Numbered from the stretch's first letter, positions 55,609-64,000 are shown. The stretch is 64,000 bases of DNA from Promethearchaeia archaeon (GCA_029856045.1 JAHQWG010000039.1:56728-120727), one strand, 5' to 3'. Notes: generated from the letters alone by a model not told the origin. Made by a program: numbers and translations.

Positions 55609-56658
55609 ATGAATACTATAGAAAAGTTAGAAGAAATAAGGAAAAAGTTGGAATTTAGACCAAAAATTGATGAAGCAAGTTTTTCTAAGATTAAATTGAA
55701 AGATTATACAATTCCTGAGGTGGATTATGACTCAATTGATTTATCAACAGAATTTCTCGGAAAAAAACTTAAAATACCTCTTGTAATCCTCGGATGGACA
55801 GGTGGCTCTGAATATATAAAACAAATTAATGAAATTCTAGCTGAAGCAGCAGAGAGAATGGGAATTGGGTTTGGGTGTGGCTCTCAATATGCAGCAATAG
55901 AAAACCCGGGAATTCAGAGTAGTTTTACAGTAATTAAAGATTTGGCTCCAAATGTATTAAAAATCGCTAATATATCCGCTACACATCTGAAAAAAGAGAA
56001 TTTCGGTGTAGAAGAATTAAATAAATGTATTGATATGATTGATGCAGATGCAATAGCTCTGTATTTTAATACATTACAAGAGGTTCTTAAACCAGAAGGA
56101 GAAAAAAATTTTAAAGGCTTACTCGGGAAAATAAAAGAATCAATTCCGCACGTTAAAAAGCCAATTATTGTGAAAGGATATGGAGATGGAATAACCAGAA
56201 TGGATGCAATAGCTTTACATGATATTGGTATTAAATATATTGATATTAGTGGATATGCGGGACCAAATAAATATGTAATTGAAGAATATAATTTATATAA
56301 GGATTCATATGATTTTTCCAGAAATTTAGCAAAGGTTTTTGAGAAATGGGGGACTTCTACTGTTCGTTCAATCTTAAATGTTAGTGGAATATATGACAAT
56401 TCTCAGGTGAAAATTATTGCATCTGGGGGTATCAGAACAGGGATAAATATTGCAAAGTGTATCTGCTTAGGTGCAAATATAGCAGGTGTTGCATCACCAT
56501 TTTTAAAAACTGCTGAACAGGATATAGAAAATGGAAAAGGTCCCCTTATATCAATAAGATTGATTAAAACATTTTTAGAAGAATTAAAAATTGCTATGTT
56601 TGTATCTGGCTCTGAGAAAATTTCAGATCTGACCGTAGATAAAATTGAATCTTTTTAG
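55609..56658 (+). CDS. Type 2 isopentenyl-diphosphate isomerase family flavoprotein (divergent active site)
   Basis: IDLSTEFLGKKL..P, TGG, GSQ, N..QE...PEG, ASGGIR; several substrate-binding residues changed. Confidence 0.8.
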   Translation: MNTIEKLEEIRKKLEFRPKIDEASFSKIKLKDYTIPEVDYDSIDLSTEFLGKKLKIPLVILGWTGGSEYIKQINEILAEAAERMGIGFGCGSQYAAIENPGIQSSFTVIKDLAPNVLKIANISATHLKKENFGVEELNKCIDMIDADAIALYFNTLQEVLKPEGEKNFKGLLGKIKESIPHVKKPIIVKGYGDGITRMDAIALHDIGIKYIDISGYAGPNKYVIEEYNLYKDSYDFSRNLAKVFEKWGTSTVRSILNVSGIYDNSQVKIIASGGIRTGINIAKCICLGANIAGVASPFLKTAEQDIENGKGPLISIRLIKTFLEELKIAMFVSGSEKISDLTVDKIESF

Positions 56659-56721: not shown

Positions 56722-58758
56722 ATGAATCTTAAATCAAATAGTTTCCAGAAAAAGGCAGGAATATTCTATACTCCAGAGTACATTAGTGAATTCATTGTAA
56801 AAAACGCAATTTTTGAATATATATTAACATTCTTTGAAAAAAGATATCAGAATATTGATGAATTAATTTTATCAGACAATCTTGATGACTTAAAAAAATT
56901 AAATAACATTATTATACATTTGAAAATCTTAGACCCAGCATGCGGAGCTGGCATATTTTTATTAAAATCGGGACAAATATTATTTGAATTAACGAGTAAA
57001 ATTGCAAAAAGATTAAATCTTAGAGAACCGACCTCCAAGAATAAGGTTGAGATATTAGAAAATAATCTTTACGGTGTTGATATATTTGAAGAAATTGTTC
57101 AAGAATGCAAATCCCAAATGAAAAAATGGTTGATTTCAAACGATCAACTTAATTTTAATAATTATGGAAATAAAAATATAAATTTTAATATAAAGGTTGG
57201 AAATAGTTTAATTAGCAGTTTAAATGAAGAAATAAATGGGGAAGATGCATTTAGTAAAGATTTTTCAATAGATTGGAAGTTATTCCACTGGAGTAAAGAA
57301 TTTCCTGAAGTAATTAAGAGCGGAGGATTTGATATCATTTTGGAAAATCCGCCCTATATTTTTACAAGAGGAGAGAATTTTTCTCCTTTACAGAAAAAGT
57401 ACTTCAAAAATTATATTTCTAAGTTAGGGTTAATTCAATCAAAAAAAGGAAGGCAAATTCAATCCAATAAATTAAATACGTATTCTCTATTTATCTTAAG
57501 GTCTTTAGAATTATTAAAAGAGGGTGGAAAATTAGCGGCAATAATTCCAAATAATTTTTTACGCAATACTAATCTCGATATTTACAGAGATTACATACTT
57601 AGTAATTATTCAATCAATCGAATTGTTGATTTATCTAATAGTGTTTTTCGAAATGTAGTTGCATCTATTGCCTGCTTATTTATTGAAAACAAAAAGCCAG
57701 ATGAGGAATTCAAGACGCAAATTATATCAAATATTGAAAATCTTAATGAAAACATTTATACAGAAAATAAGAGAACACAATCCAGTTTTCTGAAAAATAA
57801 GAGCTATGTAATTAATATTTATCTTGATGACACAGCACATAAAATTTGTGAAGAAATTATAAATAATTCAATAAGGTTAGGAGAAATTACTGAGTATATT
57901 ATTGAAGGAATTATCTGCTCTAAAAAGAGAAATGTCTTTGAAACTCGACTGATGTCCATAGATATGCCTTTTTTAGAGGGAAAAAATATTGATCGGTATA
58001 TTACTAAATGGTCTGGAAAGTTTATTAGATATAAAAGAGAAAATTTGCATAGGGCAAGACCTAATGAAGTATTTACTAGCAATAAATTGATATTACAAAG
58101 AATTAGTGGAGGACCTAAACCATTAAAAGTGAATTATGACCCTGGGATTTTTTATACATTTTCATCGATAAATAATATAATCATTAGTGACGAATACCGA
58201 AAGAAATTTCCTTTAAAACTTGTTTTAGTAATTTTAAACTCCAATCTAATGAACTGGTATTATGCAATAAATTTCTCAAATAGGTCAGAACTTACAGTAA
58301 ATATATCAAAAACTTTTTTGGAAGAAATACCTATTGTTAGACCTAAAAATAAATCCCTTTTTGAAAATATCGCAGATTATTTGATGTTTCTATTTCAGTA
58401 TTATAATATTGAAAATGAAAATTTAATTTTCAACGATGCGATGATCCAATTTTTTTATGAATTAAGTAATGGAATAGTTTATGAACTATATATGAATGAA
58501 AAAACTCATTCAAATTTATTAATTAATTTAGAAAATAAGTTAATGCCAATAGAATTTGATGATTGGATTTATGGAAAATTTAGTAATCTCATTTTTAAAG
58601 AAGAGCTATTTCATTTTAAAAAAATTGAAAAGATTAATCTTGAAAAAATAGAGAAGGTTTATGAGATTTTAATTAAAGATAACACGATTCGGACTAATTT
58701 AACTGAAATATTTGAAAATAAGTGGATAAAGTTTATTGAGAGAGGGGTTAAAAGGTGA
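56722..58758 (+). CDS. N6-adenine DNA methyltransferase, gamma class (TaqI/Eco57I-like), no nuclease domain
   Basis: GIFYTP, ILDPACGAG, FDIILENPPY, then a TaqI_C-like TRD (ILNSNLMNWYY). Confidence 0.88.
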   Translation: MNLKSNSFQKKAGIFYTPEYISEFIVKNAIFEYILTFFEKRYQNIDELILSDNLDDLKKLNNIIIHLKILDPACGAGIFLLKSGQILFELTSKIAKRLNLREPTSKNKVEILENNLYGVDIFEEIVQECKSQMKKWLISNDQLNFNNYGNKNINFNIKVGNSLISSLNEEINGEDAFSKDFSIDWKLFHWSKEFPEVIKSGGFDIILENPPYIFTRGENFSPLQKKYFKNYISKLGLIQSKKGRQIQSNKLNTYSLFILRSLELLKEGGKLAAIIPNNFLRNTNLDIYRDYILSNYSINRIVDLSNSVFRNVVASIACLFIENKKPDEEFKTQIISNIENLNENIYTENKRTQSSFLKNKSYVINIYLDDTAHKICEEIINNSIRLGEITEYIIEGIICSKKRNVFETRLMSIDMPFLEGKNIDRYITKWSGKFIRYKRENLHRARPNEVFTSNKLILQRISGGPKPLKVNYDPGIFYTFSSINNIIISDEYRKKFPLKLVLVILNSNLMNWYYAINFSNRSELTVNISKTFLEEIPIVRPKNKSLFENIADYLMFLFQYYNIENENLIFNDAMIQFFYELSNGIVYELYMNEKTHSNLLINLENKLMPIEFDDWIYGKFSNLIFKEELFHFKKIEKINLEKIEKVYEILIKDNTIRTNLTEIFENKWIKFIERGVKR

Positions 58759-59014
58759 AAAATCTTATTCCATTTACTTATTTAAAATTCTAAAAATAAT
58801 TAAAATTACAAAATCTTAGAGCACTAATCTTTGATATGAGATTTTAAAAATAATTTTTGTAGTTAAAAATTTTTAATATTTAATTTGATAATTTAAATAT
58901 TATTGTCGGAAATATATCTATCGAATAATACCTTAAAGGTAAGATTGTTAATACGCAAAATTTTAAATATTAGAATTTGTTCTTAATAAAAATAAATATC
59001 AAATATCACAATAA

Positions 59015-60331
59015 TTGCGGGGAAATATCATAAAAAATTTAAACATAAATCAGAATAATCAACTGAAATATTTAATAATAAAAAACCCATTAGATTTACA
59101 AATTGAAAGAAAAGATATATTTTATCGCGAATCTTATTCCGAAATTATTGATTATATAAAATTTTTATTGAGTTCTGAGGTTGTATCATCAGAAATTAAA
59201 ATAAAGAAGATTAAAGGTTCAATTTTGATTGATGCTCCTTATGGTTCAGATATACTACGTTATATTAAATTGATTGCAAAGACATTCACTTTAAAATTTG
59301 TAAAATTAAATTTTTCCGAGATTAGAAAATCTCCTGATGATTTTATATTAAATTTTCCAAATATTTTTGATAATTTGGCTAAAAATTATAGGGATGCTAA
59401 AAAATTAGAGCAAGAACTTAAAGAAAAAGATAAAACCATTGAAAGAGCTTTAAAATTTATATTTGTTGTTGAAAATCAACAAGAATTTTTTCAGAGAAAC
59501 TATAAAGATATTCATTTTGATATATTCGAACATTTATATTATGAATTAAAAAATAAGATGGAAAATTTCAATTTTAACGAGAATGGGATTATTTTCCTAG
59601 GAATTAATCATCTGGAGAATTCTTTATGCCGAGCAAGTTTTAAATTATTTGATTTTTATTTAAAAATTCCAACTATCGCTGAAAATGAAAGAAGGATTAT
59701 CTTAGAAAAAATTAGTGAAGAGATATCTACAAATCATACTTTTGATGTGGGCAGAATTACTTCCTTAACTGATGGTTGGGAAGTAAAAGATATAAGGGAA
59801 TTGATAAGCACTGCATATTTACGGAATGTGGCAAAATTAAATGATTCTATTAATGATATTACAGAAACAATAGAAAAAATTATTGACAAAGGGGAATTTA
59901 TTCCTTCATATTTAATTTCATTAAATTCTATTCAAAATAAATTAGGGGAATTTCAAACTCCTATAAATTCCTCAATAGTTCAATCAATAAATCAAAATAA
60001 GAAATTTAAAATAGAACTTTCAAAAGTAGATCACAAAAAAATTCCAGAACTTGAATCCAAATTAAGAGCTGAAATAGAAAAGATTAAATCACAAAGAATT
60101 TCAAATTTTATGGTACAACAATTATATGAGGATGCAGCCTCAGAAAATTATACAGAGCTCTTAGTCATATTAGATAAGATGAAAAAGAAAGAACCCCTTG
60201 AAGATTACGATCGAAAATTATTAGCAGAATATTCTTTTATTTTGAATGACCCTCCAAATATCGCTTTAATACTGTTAGAAAAGGCAAAAAAAAGAATTGA
60301 TAATATTAAAAAAGCATTTAGGAAGGAATAG
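59015..60331 (+). CDS. Degenerate (probably inactive) classical AAA ATPase-fold protein
   Basis: Follows the CDC48/PAN pattern, but Walker A is DAPYGSDI, there is no DE Walker B and no Arg finger; lid ERRIIL...LTDGWEVKDI retained. Confidence 0.7.
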   Translation: MRGNIIKNLNINQNNQLKYLIIKNPLDLQIERKDIFYRESYSEIIDYIKFLLSSEVVSSEIKIKKIKGSILIDAPYGSDILRYIKLIAKTFTLKFVKLNFSEIRKSPDDFILNFPNIFDNLAKNYRDAKKLEQELKEKDKTIERALKFIFVVENQQEFFQRNYKDIHFDIFEHLYYELKNKMENFNFNENGIIFLGINHLENSLCRASFKLFDFYLKIPTIAENERRIILEKISEEISTNHTFDVGRITSLTDGWEVKDIRELISTAYLRNVAKLNDSINDITETIEKIIDKGEFIPSYLISLNSIQNKLGEFQTPINSSIVQSINQNKKFKIELSKVDHKKIPELESKLRAEIEKIKSQRISNFMVQQLYEDAASENYTELLVILDKMKKKEPLEDYDRKLLAEYSFILNDPPNIALILLEKAKKRIDNIKKAFRKE

Positions 60332-60364
60332 AAAATTTCGACAAAATCAAAAAAAATCAAGCCT

Positions 60365-63300
60365 ATGAAATCATCGGATAACCTAGACCAAGATGTCTAT
60401 ATTAAGGAAATCATATTAGAGAACTTTTTAGCCTTTCAGAGAGATAAAGCAGAATTTTCTAAAGGATTGGTACTGATTGTTGGTCCTAATTGGTCCGGTA
60501 AATCTACAATTTACCAAGGGATAAAGTTTGCCTTGGGTAGCAATGAACGGGATGAGAGATATTCAAAATGGTCTGATTTTATAAGATCCGGACAAAATCA
60601 TGCTCTAATCGAACTATATATTCAGACACCTGAGAATTTAATTGGAATACGAAGGACAGTTCTTAGAGGAAAAGCTCCGTTTTTTGAAATAAAGCAAAAA
60701 AATGATAAAGAATTCAAAAAAATTAATTCCCTTGAAATAAGAGATCTCGTGAAATCATTAAATTATAATCCGGATAATCAATTTTCTTTTGTCAGTCAAG
60801 GCAAAATCGATGCGTTTAAAGATATGAAACCTGAGGAATTATGTATTTTCTTAGAGGAAGGAGTGGGTTTAAAAGGATTAAGGCAGGAAATTTTAAATCA
60901 AAAAACTCAAGTAGCCAAATTACAAGAAAAATTAAAAGCATTAAAAACAGAGCAAAATAGTTGGAATTTTGAATTAAAATTATTGGAGCCTAAGTTAAAA
61001 AGATTAGAAGATAAGCGAAATTTGCTTAAAGACAGAGAAAACCTTACAGATGAGTTATTATGGGCTAATCGAGATAAAATAGAGAAAGAGATTTATATTC
61101 TCGAAGAAAATATTAAGAAAATTACTATTATAATTAATGATTTACAAAAGCAATTAGAAGATTTTATATCACAAACAAATGAAATCATTAAAAAAATTGA
61201 TAAAATTAATAAAAATTCAGAAAAACTGTCTGAGAATATTGGTAAAATAAGGGGTAGAATTTCAGAACTAGAGAAGATAATTCAACAGTGGAAGATTGAG
61301 CAACAAAAAATAAAGGTACGTTTAGAAGAATTAGAACAAAAAAAAAATAAATTAAAAAGTAAATTAAACAACAATAAAGCTAAAGGAAATAAAATCTCAG
61401 AAGAATTAAAAATCATTCGCAATAATATTAAAATACTAGATTCTGCAATCTCTGATATTTTAAAAGAACAAAATGAATTAGTAGAAAAGGTATCTATTCA
61501 CAAAGATTTTCTTGAGAAATTTAAGGGGACAAAAGGGGAATTAAGTAAAAAACAAGATGAACTTATTCAGAATACCCAAAAAATAACAGAAATTAATGAT
61601 GAAATCGATAGTATTTTCGCCGAATTAAGAGATGTGAAACATCAACTTGAGCAAAATAAATGGTTTCTTAAAGATAAGGATGAGAATTTACAAGAAAAGC
61701 TGATTAATCAACGTAATAATTTGGATAATAAAATTCATGATTTGAGAGAACAACTAAGTGAAATAAGAAAGGATCATGATAAAAAAGTTAATGCTTATAA
61801 AAGATTAAATTATTCCATTAGAGAAAAAAGATTATTCTTACCTTCAAATATCATATCTTTAAAAGAAGAAATTTATAATAGAAATCTAAACGCAAAAGGC
61901 CCAATAATTGAATTATTACAATATAATGATAAATTGGGGTTTGCAATTGAATCAGTTTTAGGAAAGAAAGTATTATTTAGTTTTATTGCAGGCGATTGGA
62001 ATACTTTTATTCTACTAAAAAAATTAAAAGATAGCCATAATGTTTATTGCAATATATATATACCAAAGGAAGTAAGTATTCGTCAATTTTCAAAATATGA
62101 AAAAATTGATGGAGTATTGGGCTATCTCGCAGAATTAATTAAAATTAAAGGCAATGATGAAGATGTAAGGAAATTAATTTTTTCTAAAGTGAAAAATTGT
62201 CTTGTAGTAGAAGATTTTACTACAGGAACACTTATGCATAAAAACTACAAATTTAGAGGTAAATGCGTTACATTAAAAGGCGAACAAATCATATCATATG
62301 ATTATGTTGTTGAAACCCCATATTTAAAGAAATTAGAAGGATTATTAAGTCCAACTAAACAAATGGATCAATTGTATCTATTAGAAATGGAAATAAGTAA
62401 ATCGAATGATGAAAGAAAGGATTTAGAATCCTTAAAAACTAAAATAGATCAAAAATATCGAGAAATTTCTAAGAAAATTGATGCCTTACCTACTCTTGAA
62501 TTATTATTTCGGCAAGAACAAAAACTTTTAAGCAAAAAAGATAATCTCCTTGAAATAAGAAAAAAAATGAACGAATTGAATGATAATATTGAAATACAAA
62601 TCGATAATTTGTTAAAAGAAGTAGAAATTTTAAAGAGAGAACAAAAACCAGAGTTTTTTGAATGGCAGAAGCGTTTAGAAAAGATTCCAGAAGAATTTGA
62701 TTTAAAAAACAGTGAAAAGAAGCATTGGTCAGAAATTAATGATGAAAAACAGAAATCATTATCTGAAATTCAAGAAATTATAAATAAAGAAACCGCTGAA
62801 TTTACAAAAATAAACGTTAATTATAAAACAACTAAAAAAGAGTTTCAAGGTAGAGATCAGAAGGCATTTGAAGTATTTCAAGAACTAACTGGACTTGAAA
62901 ATCAAATTAAGGATTTAAAAATTCAGAAAGAAAAATATGAGTTAGATAAAAAGACTCTAAAGGAAGAAGAAAATAAAATTAGACAAGAAAATCTTGAATT
63001 TAATTTAAATTATGAAAGAAAACAAGACCAATTGAGTTCACTACAAAATGATCTCCAATCTAAAATCTTAGATCTAGAAAAAGTTAATAAAGAGATTGGT
63101 CCAAAAATATTGAGTAAAGAAATAGAAATACGTCCAATTGAAGAAATTGAAAATGATCTTCTCGAATTGAATAAAAGATTAATGAAATACGCAGATATTG
63201 ACGATACTCTAGATTTAGAAAAAGAGAGAATTATTCAAACACTCAAAAAAATTGCTCAAAATCAAGCACAAATTCAGAGAGACCTTATTGAAGCAGAAGA

Positions 63301-63796
63301 AACCGAAAAAAATTTAGAAAATACATATTATAAAAAGTTTAATAAAATTATCAAAAAACTAGAAGATTTAATTAATAAAAAATTTGAAATCTCTGAAATT
63401 AAAGCTCAGTGTTCGATAGATTTATCGGGAAAATTTGAAAATTTAGGTATTAAAATTAAAGCAGCTTTATTAAAAGAACAGCTACGAGATATAACCGCAT
63501 TAAGTGGAGGGCAACGCTCTATTATTGCAATTTGTTTAATACTATCTTTACAAGAATTTAAATCAAGTAGGATAATTGTATTAGACGAAGCAGAATTATA
63601 CTTGGATGAAAATAACGCTGAAATCGCTTATAAATTAATAAAGAGCGCAATTCAGATGAATAAAATACAAATAATAATATTTGTGCCAAAAGCATCTAAA
63701 TATATTTTTTCAATGGCAGACAAACTTATTGGAGTTGCACGAAATGGAGCAATAGGTCCATCAACGATACTCCAACCTAAGATAAAAAGAACTTAA
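60365..63796 (+). CDS. SMC protein with SMC5/6-like (coalescin-like) signatures
   Basis: Walker A GPNWSGKS, Q-loop FVSQGKI, long coiled coils, central hinge GPII...AIESVLG, LSGGQR, VLDE, FVPK. Confidence 0.9.
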   Translation: MKSSDNLDQDVYIKEIILENFLAFQRDKAEFSKGLVLIVGPNWSGKSTIYQGIKFALGSNERDERYSKWSDFIRSGQNHALIELYIQTPENLIGIRRTVLRGKAPFFEIKQKNDKEFKKINSLEIRDLVKSLNYNPDNQFSFVSQGKIDAFKDMKPEELCIFLEEGVGLKGLRQEILNQKTQVAKLQEKLKALKTEQNSWNFELKLLEPKLKRLEDKRNLLKDRENLTDELLWANRDKIEKEIYILEENIKKITIIINDLQKQLEDFISQTNEIIKKIDKINKNSEKLSENIGKIRGRISELEKIIQQWKIEQQKIKVRLEELEQKKNKLKSKLNNNKAKGNKISEELKIIRNNIKILDSAISDILKEQNELVEKVSIHKDFLEKFKGTKGELSKKQDELIQNTQKITEINDEIDSIFAELRDVKHQLEQNKWFLKDKDENLQEKLINQRNNLDNKIHDLREQLSEIRKDHDKKVNAYKRLNYSIREKRLFLPSNIISLKEEIYNRNLNAKGPIIELLQYNDKLGFAIESVLGKKVLFSFIAGDWNTFILLKKLKDSHNVYCNIYIPKEVSIRQFSKYEKIDGVLGYLAELIKIKGNDEDVRKLIFSKVKNCLVVEDFTTGTLMHKNYKFRGKCVTLKGEQIISYDYVVETPYLKKLEGLLSPTKQMDQLYLLEMEISKSNDERKDLESLKTKIDQKYREISKKIDALPTLELLFRQEQKLLSKKDNLLEIRKKMNELNDNIEIQIDNLLKEVEILKREQKPEFFEWQKRLEKIPEEFDLKNSEKKHWSEINDEKQKSLSEIQEIINKETAEFTKINVNYKTTKKEFQGRDQKAFEVFQELTGLENQIKDLKIQKEKYELDKKTLKEEENKIRQENLEFNLNYERKQDQLSSLQNDLQSKILDLEKVNKEIGPKILSKEIEIRPIEEIENDLLELNKRLMKYADIDDTLDLEKERIIQTLKKIAQNQAQIQRDLIEAEETEKNLENTYYKKFNKIIKKLEDLINKKFEISEIKAQCSIDLSGKFENLGIKIKAALLKEQLRDITALSGGQRSIIAICLILSLQEFKSSRIIVLDEAELYLDENNAEIAYKLIKSAIQMNKIQIIIFVPKASKYIFSMADKLIGVARNGAIGPSTILQPKIKRT

Positions 63797-63813
63797 AAAA
63801 AATAGGGATAATT

Positions 63814-64000
63814 ATGGAAAAAAATAACTCCTCTACCCCGTCTATTATTGAAGAAATTCAAGAAATTTTTGAGATAATTCATAGAGGATCCAAACATGCT
63901 CTAAGTGTAGATTTAAATCCAATTTTTCAAAAATTTAAGCGATCCATAAATACACAAAATCTGAACGAATCTTCCTCTGCATTTAGTAAGTTATGTAATA
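63814..64000 (+). CDS. Kleisin (ScpA-like) N-terminal region, 3'-truncated by window
   Basis: ATG 17 nt after the SMC stop; MEKNNSSTPSIIEEIQEIFEIIHRGSKHALSVDLNPIFQKF...NLNESSSAF resembles the kleisin N-domain. Confidence 0.5.
   Translation, partial: MEKNNSSTPSIIEEIQEIFEIIHRGSKHALSVDLNPIFQKFKRSINTQNLNESSSAFSKLCN

Follow-up and report, generated by a model that had tools for sequence, protein, structure and literature searches.

An AAA-like gene heads the SMC5/6-related SMC operon of Asgard archaea and is degenerate in Lokiarchaeia

The window analysed here, a 64,000-nucleotide stretch of DNA from a Promethearchaeia archaeon (GCA_029856045.1, JAHQWG010000039.1:56728-120727), ends in three co-oriented genes that encode an AAA-like protein, a 1143-residue SMC protein and the first part of a putative kleisin. 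We propose, with a probability of about 0.72, that these three genes open a four-gene operon which combines an SMC5/6-related complex of published type with a formerly active AAA protein, now a non-catalytic subunit or regulator. The four-gene operon is conserved in Lokiarchaeia and in several other Asgard lineages.

The original prediction, made from the sequence of this stretch, had recognised an SMC5/6-like operon but knew of no described SMC system with this combination of genes. For the core of the operon that claim was wrong, because the SMC5/6-related archaeal SMC (aSMC) and its operons have already been described, including the ortholog in Promethearchaeum syntrophicum (10.1101/2024.01.07.573240; PMC8665677). 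The term 'SMC5/6-related aSMC' was defined by Yoshinaga and Inagaki in 2021 (PMC8665677), and van Hooff, Raas, Tromer and Eme reported an SMC5/6-related SMC-kleisin-kite operon in TACK and Asgard archaea (bioRxiv 10.1101/2024.01.07.573240). In their account of P. syntrophicum, gene 495 is the SMC5/6-related SMC, 496 the Nse4-related kleisin and 497 the Nse1/3-related kite, and genes 810-808 form a condensin/cohesin-related (condensin-like) operon (10.1101/2024.01.07.573240).

The orthologs of the window's genes in P. syntrophicum MK-D1 (G038) are DSAG12_00496 (AAA-like, annotated 'hypothetical'), QEE14684.1 (SMC, annotated 'AAA family ATPase'), DSAG12_00498 and DSAG12_00499. The match to the SMC ortholog has an E value of 3e-146 and synteny extends over all four genes; the kleisin ortholog, QEE14685.1, is gene 496 of the paper. 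The long SMC gene of that genome lies 319 kb past the operon, across the origin (about 313 genes at 1 kb each). The mapping of locus tags onto the published numbers is secure because an offset of two and this 319-kb distance fit the gene numbering. The published 'condensin/cohesin-related' example from P. syntrophicum corresponds to this long SMC and not to the canonical Smc.

By orthology, the window's SMC is a member of the archaeal SMC5/6-related SMCs. Being already described, the core operon is itself ordinary; the SMC-kleisin-kite core is known and the AAA-like gene 5' of the SMC is the unreported part. The string 'AAA' occurs nowhere in the main or supplementary text of van Hooff et al. 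or of Yoshinaga and Inagaki, and we found no paper in which an AAA gene is mentioned next to an SMC operon of archaea.

Linkage and decay of the AAA-like gene

Synteny across Lokiarchaeia, a check proposed with the original prediction, bears out the arrangement. In each of the 20+ loci from the same family and order that have enough flanking sequence, the AAA-like gene is followed by the SMC gene, a gene for a protein of 210-270 residues (kleisin) and one for a protein of 170-190 residues (kite). The AAA-like gene also lies directly upstream of the SMC in 14/14 loci from five further Asgard families. A kite, a kleisin or both were detected downstream in 12 of these 14, and neither in L055 or in L057, which stops at its contig end. 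Contigs from metagenomes and from metagenome-assembled genomes keep the same gene order. The gaps between the AAA-like and SMC genes range from about -35 to +33 nucleotides (nt), and their adjacency persists while the flanking genes vary between loci.

Counts for the SMC ortholog and the AAA-like gene run in parallel from family to family: 52/54 and 50/54 in family f1, 5/5 and 5/5 in f2, 47/59 and 45/59 in f10, 3/5 and 3/5 in f11, and 1/1 and 1/1 in both f12 and f29. By source name the carriers include Baldrarchaeia, Odinarchaeota and Helarchaeales, and one Atlas row suggests that Thorarchaeota are among them. The SMC ortholog is present in 39 of 41 related genomes, in a single copy in nearly all. 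Its identity is 90% within the genus, 40-46% within the family and 25-32% in the other families of the order; it declines in step with kinship, a pattern like that of a vertically inherited core gene.

The AAA-like protein is predicted to have an AAA alpha-beta core and a helical lid. Its AlphaFold2 (AF2) model, with a pLDDT (predicted local distance difference test) score of 69, matched Vps4, p97 D2, PAN, Msp1/ATAD1 and FtsH in Foldseek at E values of about 2e-6 to 4e-5. At the sequence level, the Pfam AAA model reached only E 0.24 against the same-genus ortholog. A profile of the family collected 32310 proteins at E<=0.001 from a representative library; beyond the family, the listed matches are proteins with up to six separate matched stretches, which we read as multi-domain AAA proteins. 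In the family of the P. syntrophicum-type loci (L041-L043, L061) the protein is longer, at 421-603 residues, with N-terminal low-complexity extensions.

The catalytic residues of this fold have decayed. APYGSDIL, FIFVVENQ and FKLFD (for RRFD) stand in place of the Walker A, Walker B and arginine-finger motifs, and in the alignment the window's AAA-like protein lacks Lys in Walker A and Asp-Glu in Walker B, as well as the arginine fingers and the aromatic pore loop 1. It retains an FD-x-x-I-x-h-P box and the T-E/D-G-W motif of the lid. Conservation is highest in a C-terminal helical domain of about 75 residues (362-438), and a Pfam scan of ten such domains from the family gave no match. A hidden Markov model (HMM) of the domain found about 50 representative clusters, all of this AAA-like type. 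Each cluster whose context was examined adjoins this SMC, directly upstream.

Two members with the C-terminal domain retain Walker A and occupy the same operon position. P0130, from Odinarchaeota, keeps GPPGTGKT, LDEFD, an SSYLGE pore loop and RRFD, and heads a cluster in which the SMC is followed by proteins of 244 and 175 residues; P0106, from Helarchaeales, keeps Walker A and none of the other motifs. Regain of the complete motif set is improbable, so the family probably descends from an active ATPase that was already associated with the operon, and the Lokiarchaeial form is probably a derived pseudo-enzyme.

The SMC, kleisin and KITE proteins

The 1143-residue protein is an SMC proper, distinct from this genome's canonical Smc. 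It matches Pfam SMC_N, and SMC_hinge over residues 511-621 at E 0.0023, which is under the Pfam cut-off for this sequence; an SMC_hinge match is also recorded for orthologs. The CxxC zinc hook that marks Rad50/SbcC is absent from the whole protein, which has only six scattered Cys. The protein is thus the hinged SMC without a Rad50 hook that had been predicted, and every motif string quoted at that time was found in it. In the N-terminal part these are GPNWSGKS at residues 40-47 and LNYNPDNQFSFVSQGKI at 132-148 (Q-loop Q145), followed by the hinge string KGPIIELLQYNDKLGFAIESVLG at 511-533. The C-terminal half holds LSGGQ (1046-1050), IIVLDE (1070-1075), LYLDE (1078-1082) and IIFVPKAS (1104-1111). 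The ATPase motifs are intact, split over the N- and C-terminal head halves and invariant in 22-28 orthologs. The Trp in Walker A, singled out earlier as unusual, is indeed present but is limited to Lokiarchaeial members, the consensus of the wider Asgard alignment being GPNGSGKT. The FVPK position reads ITHR or ISHR in both other SMC paralogs of the genome, and its Pro is invariant in the clade.

Three SMC systems are encoded in this genome: a canonical Smc, a long Smc and the present operon. Against the canonical-Smc model TIGR02169, an NCBIfam equivalog with a curated cut-off of 729.4 bits, the window's SMC scores 185.1 bits and the paralog on contig C25 scores 834.9 bits. The canonical Smc gene (C25:29216-32764, L039) has an overlapping ScpB gene and no adjacent ScpA, whilst the long SMC gene (1476 residues, C27:98965-103344, L040) is followed by ScpA-like and ScpB genes. 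The earlier view of an SMC set apart from canonical Smc, accompanied by a short putative kleisin of its own and by a degenerate neighbour of AAA origin, is supported.

A check for a KITE/ScpB or nuclease gene downstream of the window had been suggested with the original prediction, and a gene for a KITE of 174 residues was found there on contig C6. The AF2 model of its product (pLDDT 89) has two winged helices in a tandem winged-helix fold, and the Foldseek list comprises ScpB, MukE, JetB, Nse1 and Nse3. Among the structural matches, only those to ScpB (4i98_C, Z 11.9 over 148 residues) and Nse1 (7dg2_A, Z 9.4 over 158 residues) extended over the full length. On this model the protein is identified as a KITE. 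ScpB outscores Nse1 in both fold searches, and a MAGE cluster appears as an Atlas lead at 0.81 only. The published Nse1/3 assignment of the kite was based on an iterated Nse1/3 profile (10.1101/2024.01.07.573240).

The 223-residue protein, encoded between the SMC and kite genes, is a putative kleisin. Weak hints, the position of the gene and the published assignment of its ortholog all point this way. The hints are an NCBIfam ScpA C-terminal match over residues 162-214 (E 0.004) and Atlas leads to Nse4_C and ScpA clusters at 0.82-0.90. Profiles of the kleisin and the kite gave only chance-level matches against Protein Data Bank sequences, and hhalign gave no significant alignment of either profile to the ScpA-like and ScpB-like proteins that the genome itself encodes.

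Similarity tests for an affinity to SMC5/6 are mixed. In a phmmer search of the N-terminal head (N-head) against solved structures, yeast Smc5 came top (40.5 bits) and Smc6 (35.6 bits) ranked above SMC1-4. With the two paralogs as queries, Pyrococcus Smc scored about 150-159 bits; Smc5/6 was absent for C25 and reached 47 bits for C27. The likeness to an SMC5 sequence block noted by the original prediction is visible in the HMMER alignment to yeast Smc5 as an LN..DN...F.SQ correspondence. The Pro-Lys of the switch region is also shared with Smc5. The motif argument alone is weak, and the affinity leans here on published trees. Two independent phylogenies place the archaeal SMC group with eukaryotic SMC5/6 (10.1101/2024.01.07.573240; PMC8665677), and the published kleisin tree groups its kleisins with Nse4 with strong support. 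The predicted SMC5/6 resemblance is supported by the published grouping and by the N-head, and not by the C-terminal head (C-head), whose profile scores best with Pyrococcus Smc.

The operon shares with the published archaeal SMC5/6-related operon the order SMC, short kleisin and kite and the company of a condensin-like Smc-ScpA-ScpB operon, and differs in the AAA-like gene, which is unmentioned there, and in a third SMC of this genome, canonical and beside ScpB. Like eukaryotic SMC5/6 (Smc5, Smc6, Nse4, Nse1/Nse3, Nse2, Nse5/6), it combines an SMC with a putative kleisin and a predicted tandem-winged-helix kite, its N-head has Smc5 as best solved match and its switch region lacks the canonical His. 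Unlike the eukaryotic complex, it would have a homodimeric SMC, has one 174-residue kite that carries no RING finger, lacks Nse2 and Nse5/6, and brings an AAA-derived candidate partner with no counterpart in eukaryotic SMC5/6. The Smc-ScpAB complex of bacteria and archaea has the same architecture, with ScpB nearest to the kite (Z 11.9) and Pyrococcus Smc nearest to the C-head. The operon is set apart from it by the TIGR02169 score (185 against a cut-off of 729), by Pfam ScpA matches in 0 kleisins and Pfam ScpB matches in 4/32 kites, and by the presence of true Smc, ScpA and ScpB genes at other loci of this genome.

The AAA-like protein shares with the classic-clade AAA ATPases (Vps4/CdvC, Cdc48/p97 D2, PAN, Msp1/ATAD1, FtsH; PF00004) the predicted core and lid and the two retained motifs, and its Odinarchaeota relatives have all catalytic motifs. 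It differs in the loss of the catalytic motifs and pore loop, in a C-terminal helical domain of no known family and in being encoded beside an SMC. Wadjet JetABCD and MukBEF also encode SMC, kleisin and kite in one operon, and JetB and MukE are among the structural matches of the kite, but here there is no JetD-type nuclease, JetC models match weakly and the distribution resembles that of a vertically inherited core gene.

Proposed mechanism and rival explanations

From gene content, folds, motif states, orthology and synteny we infer that the four products work as one machine in which the AAA-like protein is probably an unrecognised fourth partner. By analogy with SMC complexes of known structure, the SMC would form a homodimer joined at the hinge, the kleisin would bridge the ATPase heads and a KITE dimer would sit on the kleisin. 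Such a complex would entrap or extrude DNA using ATP, and would act beside the canonical Smc and the long Smc-ScpAB encoded elsewhere in the genome. The AAA-like gene would derive from a classic-clade AAA ATPase that was active and had already become coupled to the operon. In Lokiarchaeia its product would have given up nucleotide binding and hydrolysis, along with its arginine fingers and pore loop, whilst keeping the strongly conserved C-terminal domain. It would then serve as a non-catalytic fourth subunit or regulator that modulates the complex without ATP hydrolysis. The protein would probably dock via this domain, and might influence loading, unloading or turnover.

A bolder version of the proposal is tentative, and we would not quite give it even odds. 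Here the AAA-type protein is a true fourth subunit, once an active substrate-threading remodeller (surviving in Odinarchaeota) that would open, load or recycle the SMC-kleisin ring, and in Lokiarchaeia and several other lineages a pseudo-enzyme that would regulate by binding alone. Of the eukaryotic SMC complexes, the least understood is proposed to descend from the Asgard SMC5/6-related complex. A dedicated AAA-derived subunit, active or dead according to lineage, would, if true, offer a testable handle on ring loading, opening and recycling before eukaryotes. Since P. syntrophicum has been cultured, its genes DSAG12_00496-00499 could be expressed for such tests.

A complex prediction with the SMC head halves, the kleisin and AAA-like residues 53-438 scored 0.00, which speaks neither for nor against binding. 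Several results weigh against our proposal. The AAA-like gene could be merely a conserved neighbour that shares the promoter and works in an unrelated process, such as protein quality control or ESCRT-type remodelling; its nearest folds, Vps4, p97 and PAN, all act on unrelated substrates, and its C-terminal domain has no known SMC-binding counterpart. We regard this as unlikely. The two genes are adjacent in every examined locus of families f1, f2, f3, f10, f11, f12, f25 and f29 and on the Odinarchaeota and Helarchaeales contigs, and they remain so, with tiny gaps or overlaps, where the flanks change. They are present or missing in the same families, and the C-terminal domain is confined to this type of protein, beside this SMC wherever context was examined. 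In family f25 (L055, G234) the motif-intact AAA gene has no C-terminal domain and accompanies a far more divergent SMC. The L055 SMC has 1075 residues and scores 141 bits against the clade profile; the locus may represent a separate branch of AAA-SMC pairing.

The remaining contrary results concern the SMC5/6 affinity, which might be a long-branch effect, the operon then being a rapidly evolving duplicate of archaeal Smc-ScpAB without any particular tie to eukaryotic SMC5/6. The C-head profile comes nearest to Pyrococcus and Bacillus Smc (116 bits for Pyrococcus, against 73-85 for SMC1-4 and 56-70 for Smc5/6, with Smc5 at 69), and the full-length profile ranks SMC4 and SMC2 highest. The kite is structurally closest to ScpB, with Pfam ScpB matching 4/32 kites and Nse1 or MAGE 0/32. 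The kleisin has no significant ScpA, Nse4 or other Pfam match (ScpA 0 and Nse4 0 in a scan of 29 kleisins), and its only family match of any kind is the weak one to ScpA. Moreover, the approximately unbiased test on the published tree does not reject monophyly of all eukaryotic SMCs (p-AU 0.317; 10.1101/2024.01.07.573240). Such an explanation is nonetheless rather unlikely, since it runs against the two published SMC phylogenies and the kleisin tree, against Smc5 as best solved N-head match where the paralogs find it absent or low, and against the shared LN..DN..F.SQ block. The switch Pro-Lys common to this SMC and Smc5 counts the same way. A mobile defence system of Wadjet or Lamassu type, directed against plasmids or viruses and perhaps tied to the adjacent Eco57I-type methyltransferase, is very unlikely. 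An Eco57I/TaqI_C methyltransferase gene does lie directly upstream, similar genes occur within 3-5 kb in P. syntrophicum and GCA_021498095.1, and eukaryotic SMC5/6 restricts extrachromosomal DNA. However, there is no JetD- or LmuA-type nuclease in the cluster, nor a nuclease in any locus, and the methyltransferase is missing at the loci of the family's other genera. PADLOC returned generic ABC-ATPase matches of <=60 bits and nothing for the AAA-like protein, the kleisin or the kite. The SMC moreover behaves as a core gene, in copy number as in the tracking of kinship by identity.

Locus layout and surroundings

The predicted layout of three co-oriented reading frames within 59015-64000, with gaps of 33 and 17 nt, is borne out (Table 1), the third frame running open to the end. 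The window ends with contig C41 of a 3.34-Mb genome in 55 contigs, and because it stops there the third frame holds only the first 62 of 223 residues. The start of contig C6 is an exact 127-nt overlap with the last bases of C41. C6 carries the remainder of the third gene, which ends at C6:612 (L063:1-612; tblastn), and the fourth gene at C6:596-1120 (L063:596-1120), which overlaps the end of the third by 17 nt. In a closely related genome (G004, SMC 90% identical) all four genes are uninterrupted and are followed by a gene for an MFS transporter.

Table 1 Features of the operon, in window coordinates
Feature	Position	Strand	Basis
AT-rich intergenic region, presumed operon promoter region	58759..59014	+	GC about 21%; sequence and composition
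Pseudo-AAA gene, 438 residues, TTG start; predicted classic-clade AAA fold, lid and C-terminal helical domain	59015..60331	+	AF2 model, family profile, synteny
Degenerate Walker A position, APYGSDIL instead of GPPGTGKT	59234..59257	+	Alignment with motif-intact P0130 and L055
Degenerate Walker B strand, FIFVVENQ instead of hhhhDE	59456..59479	+	Alignment
FD-x-x-x-K-I-P box, equivalent to RRFD-x-x-I-x-h-P of active AAA proteins, arginine fingers gone	59639..59671	+	Alignment
C-terminal helical domain, residues 362-438	60098..60328	+	Conservation, HMM, AF2 pLDDT 79-91
SMC5/6-related archaeal SMC, 1143 residues, two coiled-coil arms and hinge	60365..63796	+	Pfam SMC_N, orthology to QEE14684.1
SMC Walker A GPNWSGKS	60482..60505	+	G40, N42, G45, K46 invariant
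Hinge core (KGPI...GFAIESVLG)	61895..61963	+	Pfam SMC_hinge; G512, P513 invariant
Signature LSGGQ, Walker B IIVLDE, D-loop LYLDE	63500..63610	+	S, G, D, E invariant
Switch region IIFVPKAS, invariant Pro in place of the canonical Smc H-loop His	63674..63697	+	Ortholog alignment
Putative short kleisin, first 62 codons of 223 residues (open)	63814..63999	+	Remainder on C6 by 127-nt overlap and tblastn

Directly 5' of the operon, window positions 56722-58758 (+) encode an Eco57I / TaqI_C-type N6-adenine DNA methyltransferase of 678 residues, in which no endonuclease domain was detected. Similar genes, of Eco57I/MmeI type, are found on the opposite strand 3-5 kb downstream of the operon in P. syntrophicum and GCA_021498095.1. 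A link between such methyltransferases and the operon was considered and rejected, as they lie near it in three genomes and are missing at the loci of the family's other genera. Further upstream, positions 55609-56658 (+) encode an FMN-dependent dehydrogenase / IDI-2-like protein (Pfam FMN_dh, E 5e-18), and this gene and the methyltransferase gene are conserved together in the same-genus genome G004.

At the P. syntrophicum-type loci (L041-L043, L061) the operon is preceded by a GH77 amylomaltase gene and followed by a reading frame of 106-115 residues (not seen in L061), a cold-shock protein gene and an alpha/beta hydrolase gene. On C6, the region after the kite gene (L063:1223-1806) aligns, in adjacent pieces, with just residues 1-83 and 360-476 of the 476-residue MFS transporter of G004; this copy looks like a pseudogene or a gene with a large internal deletion.

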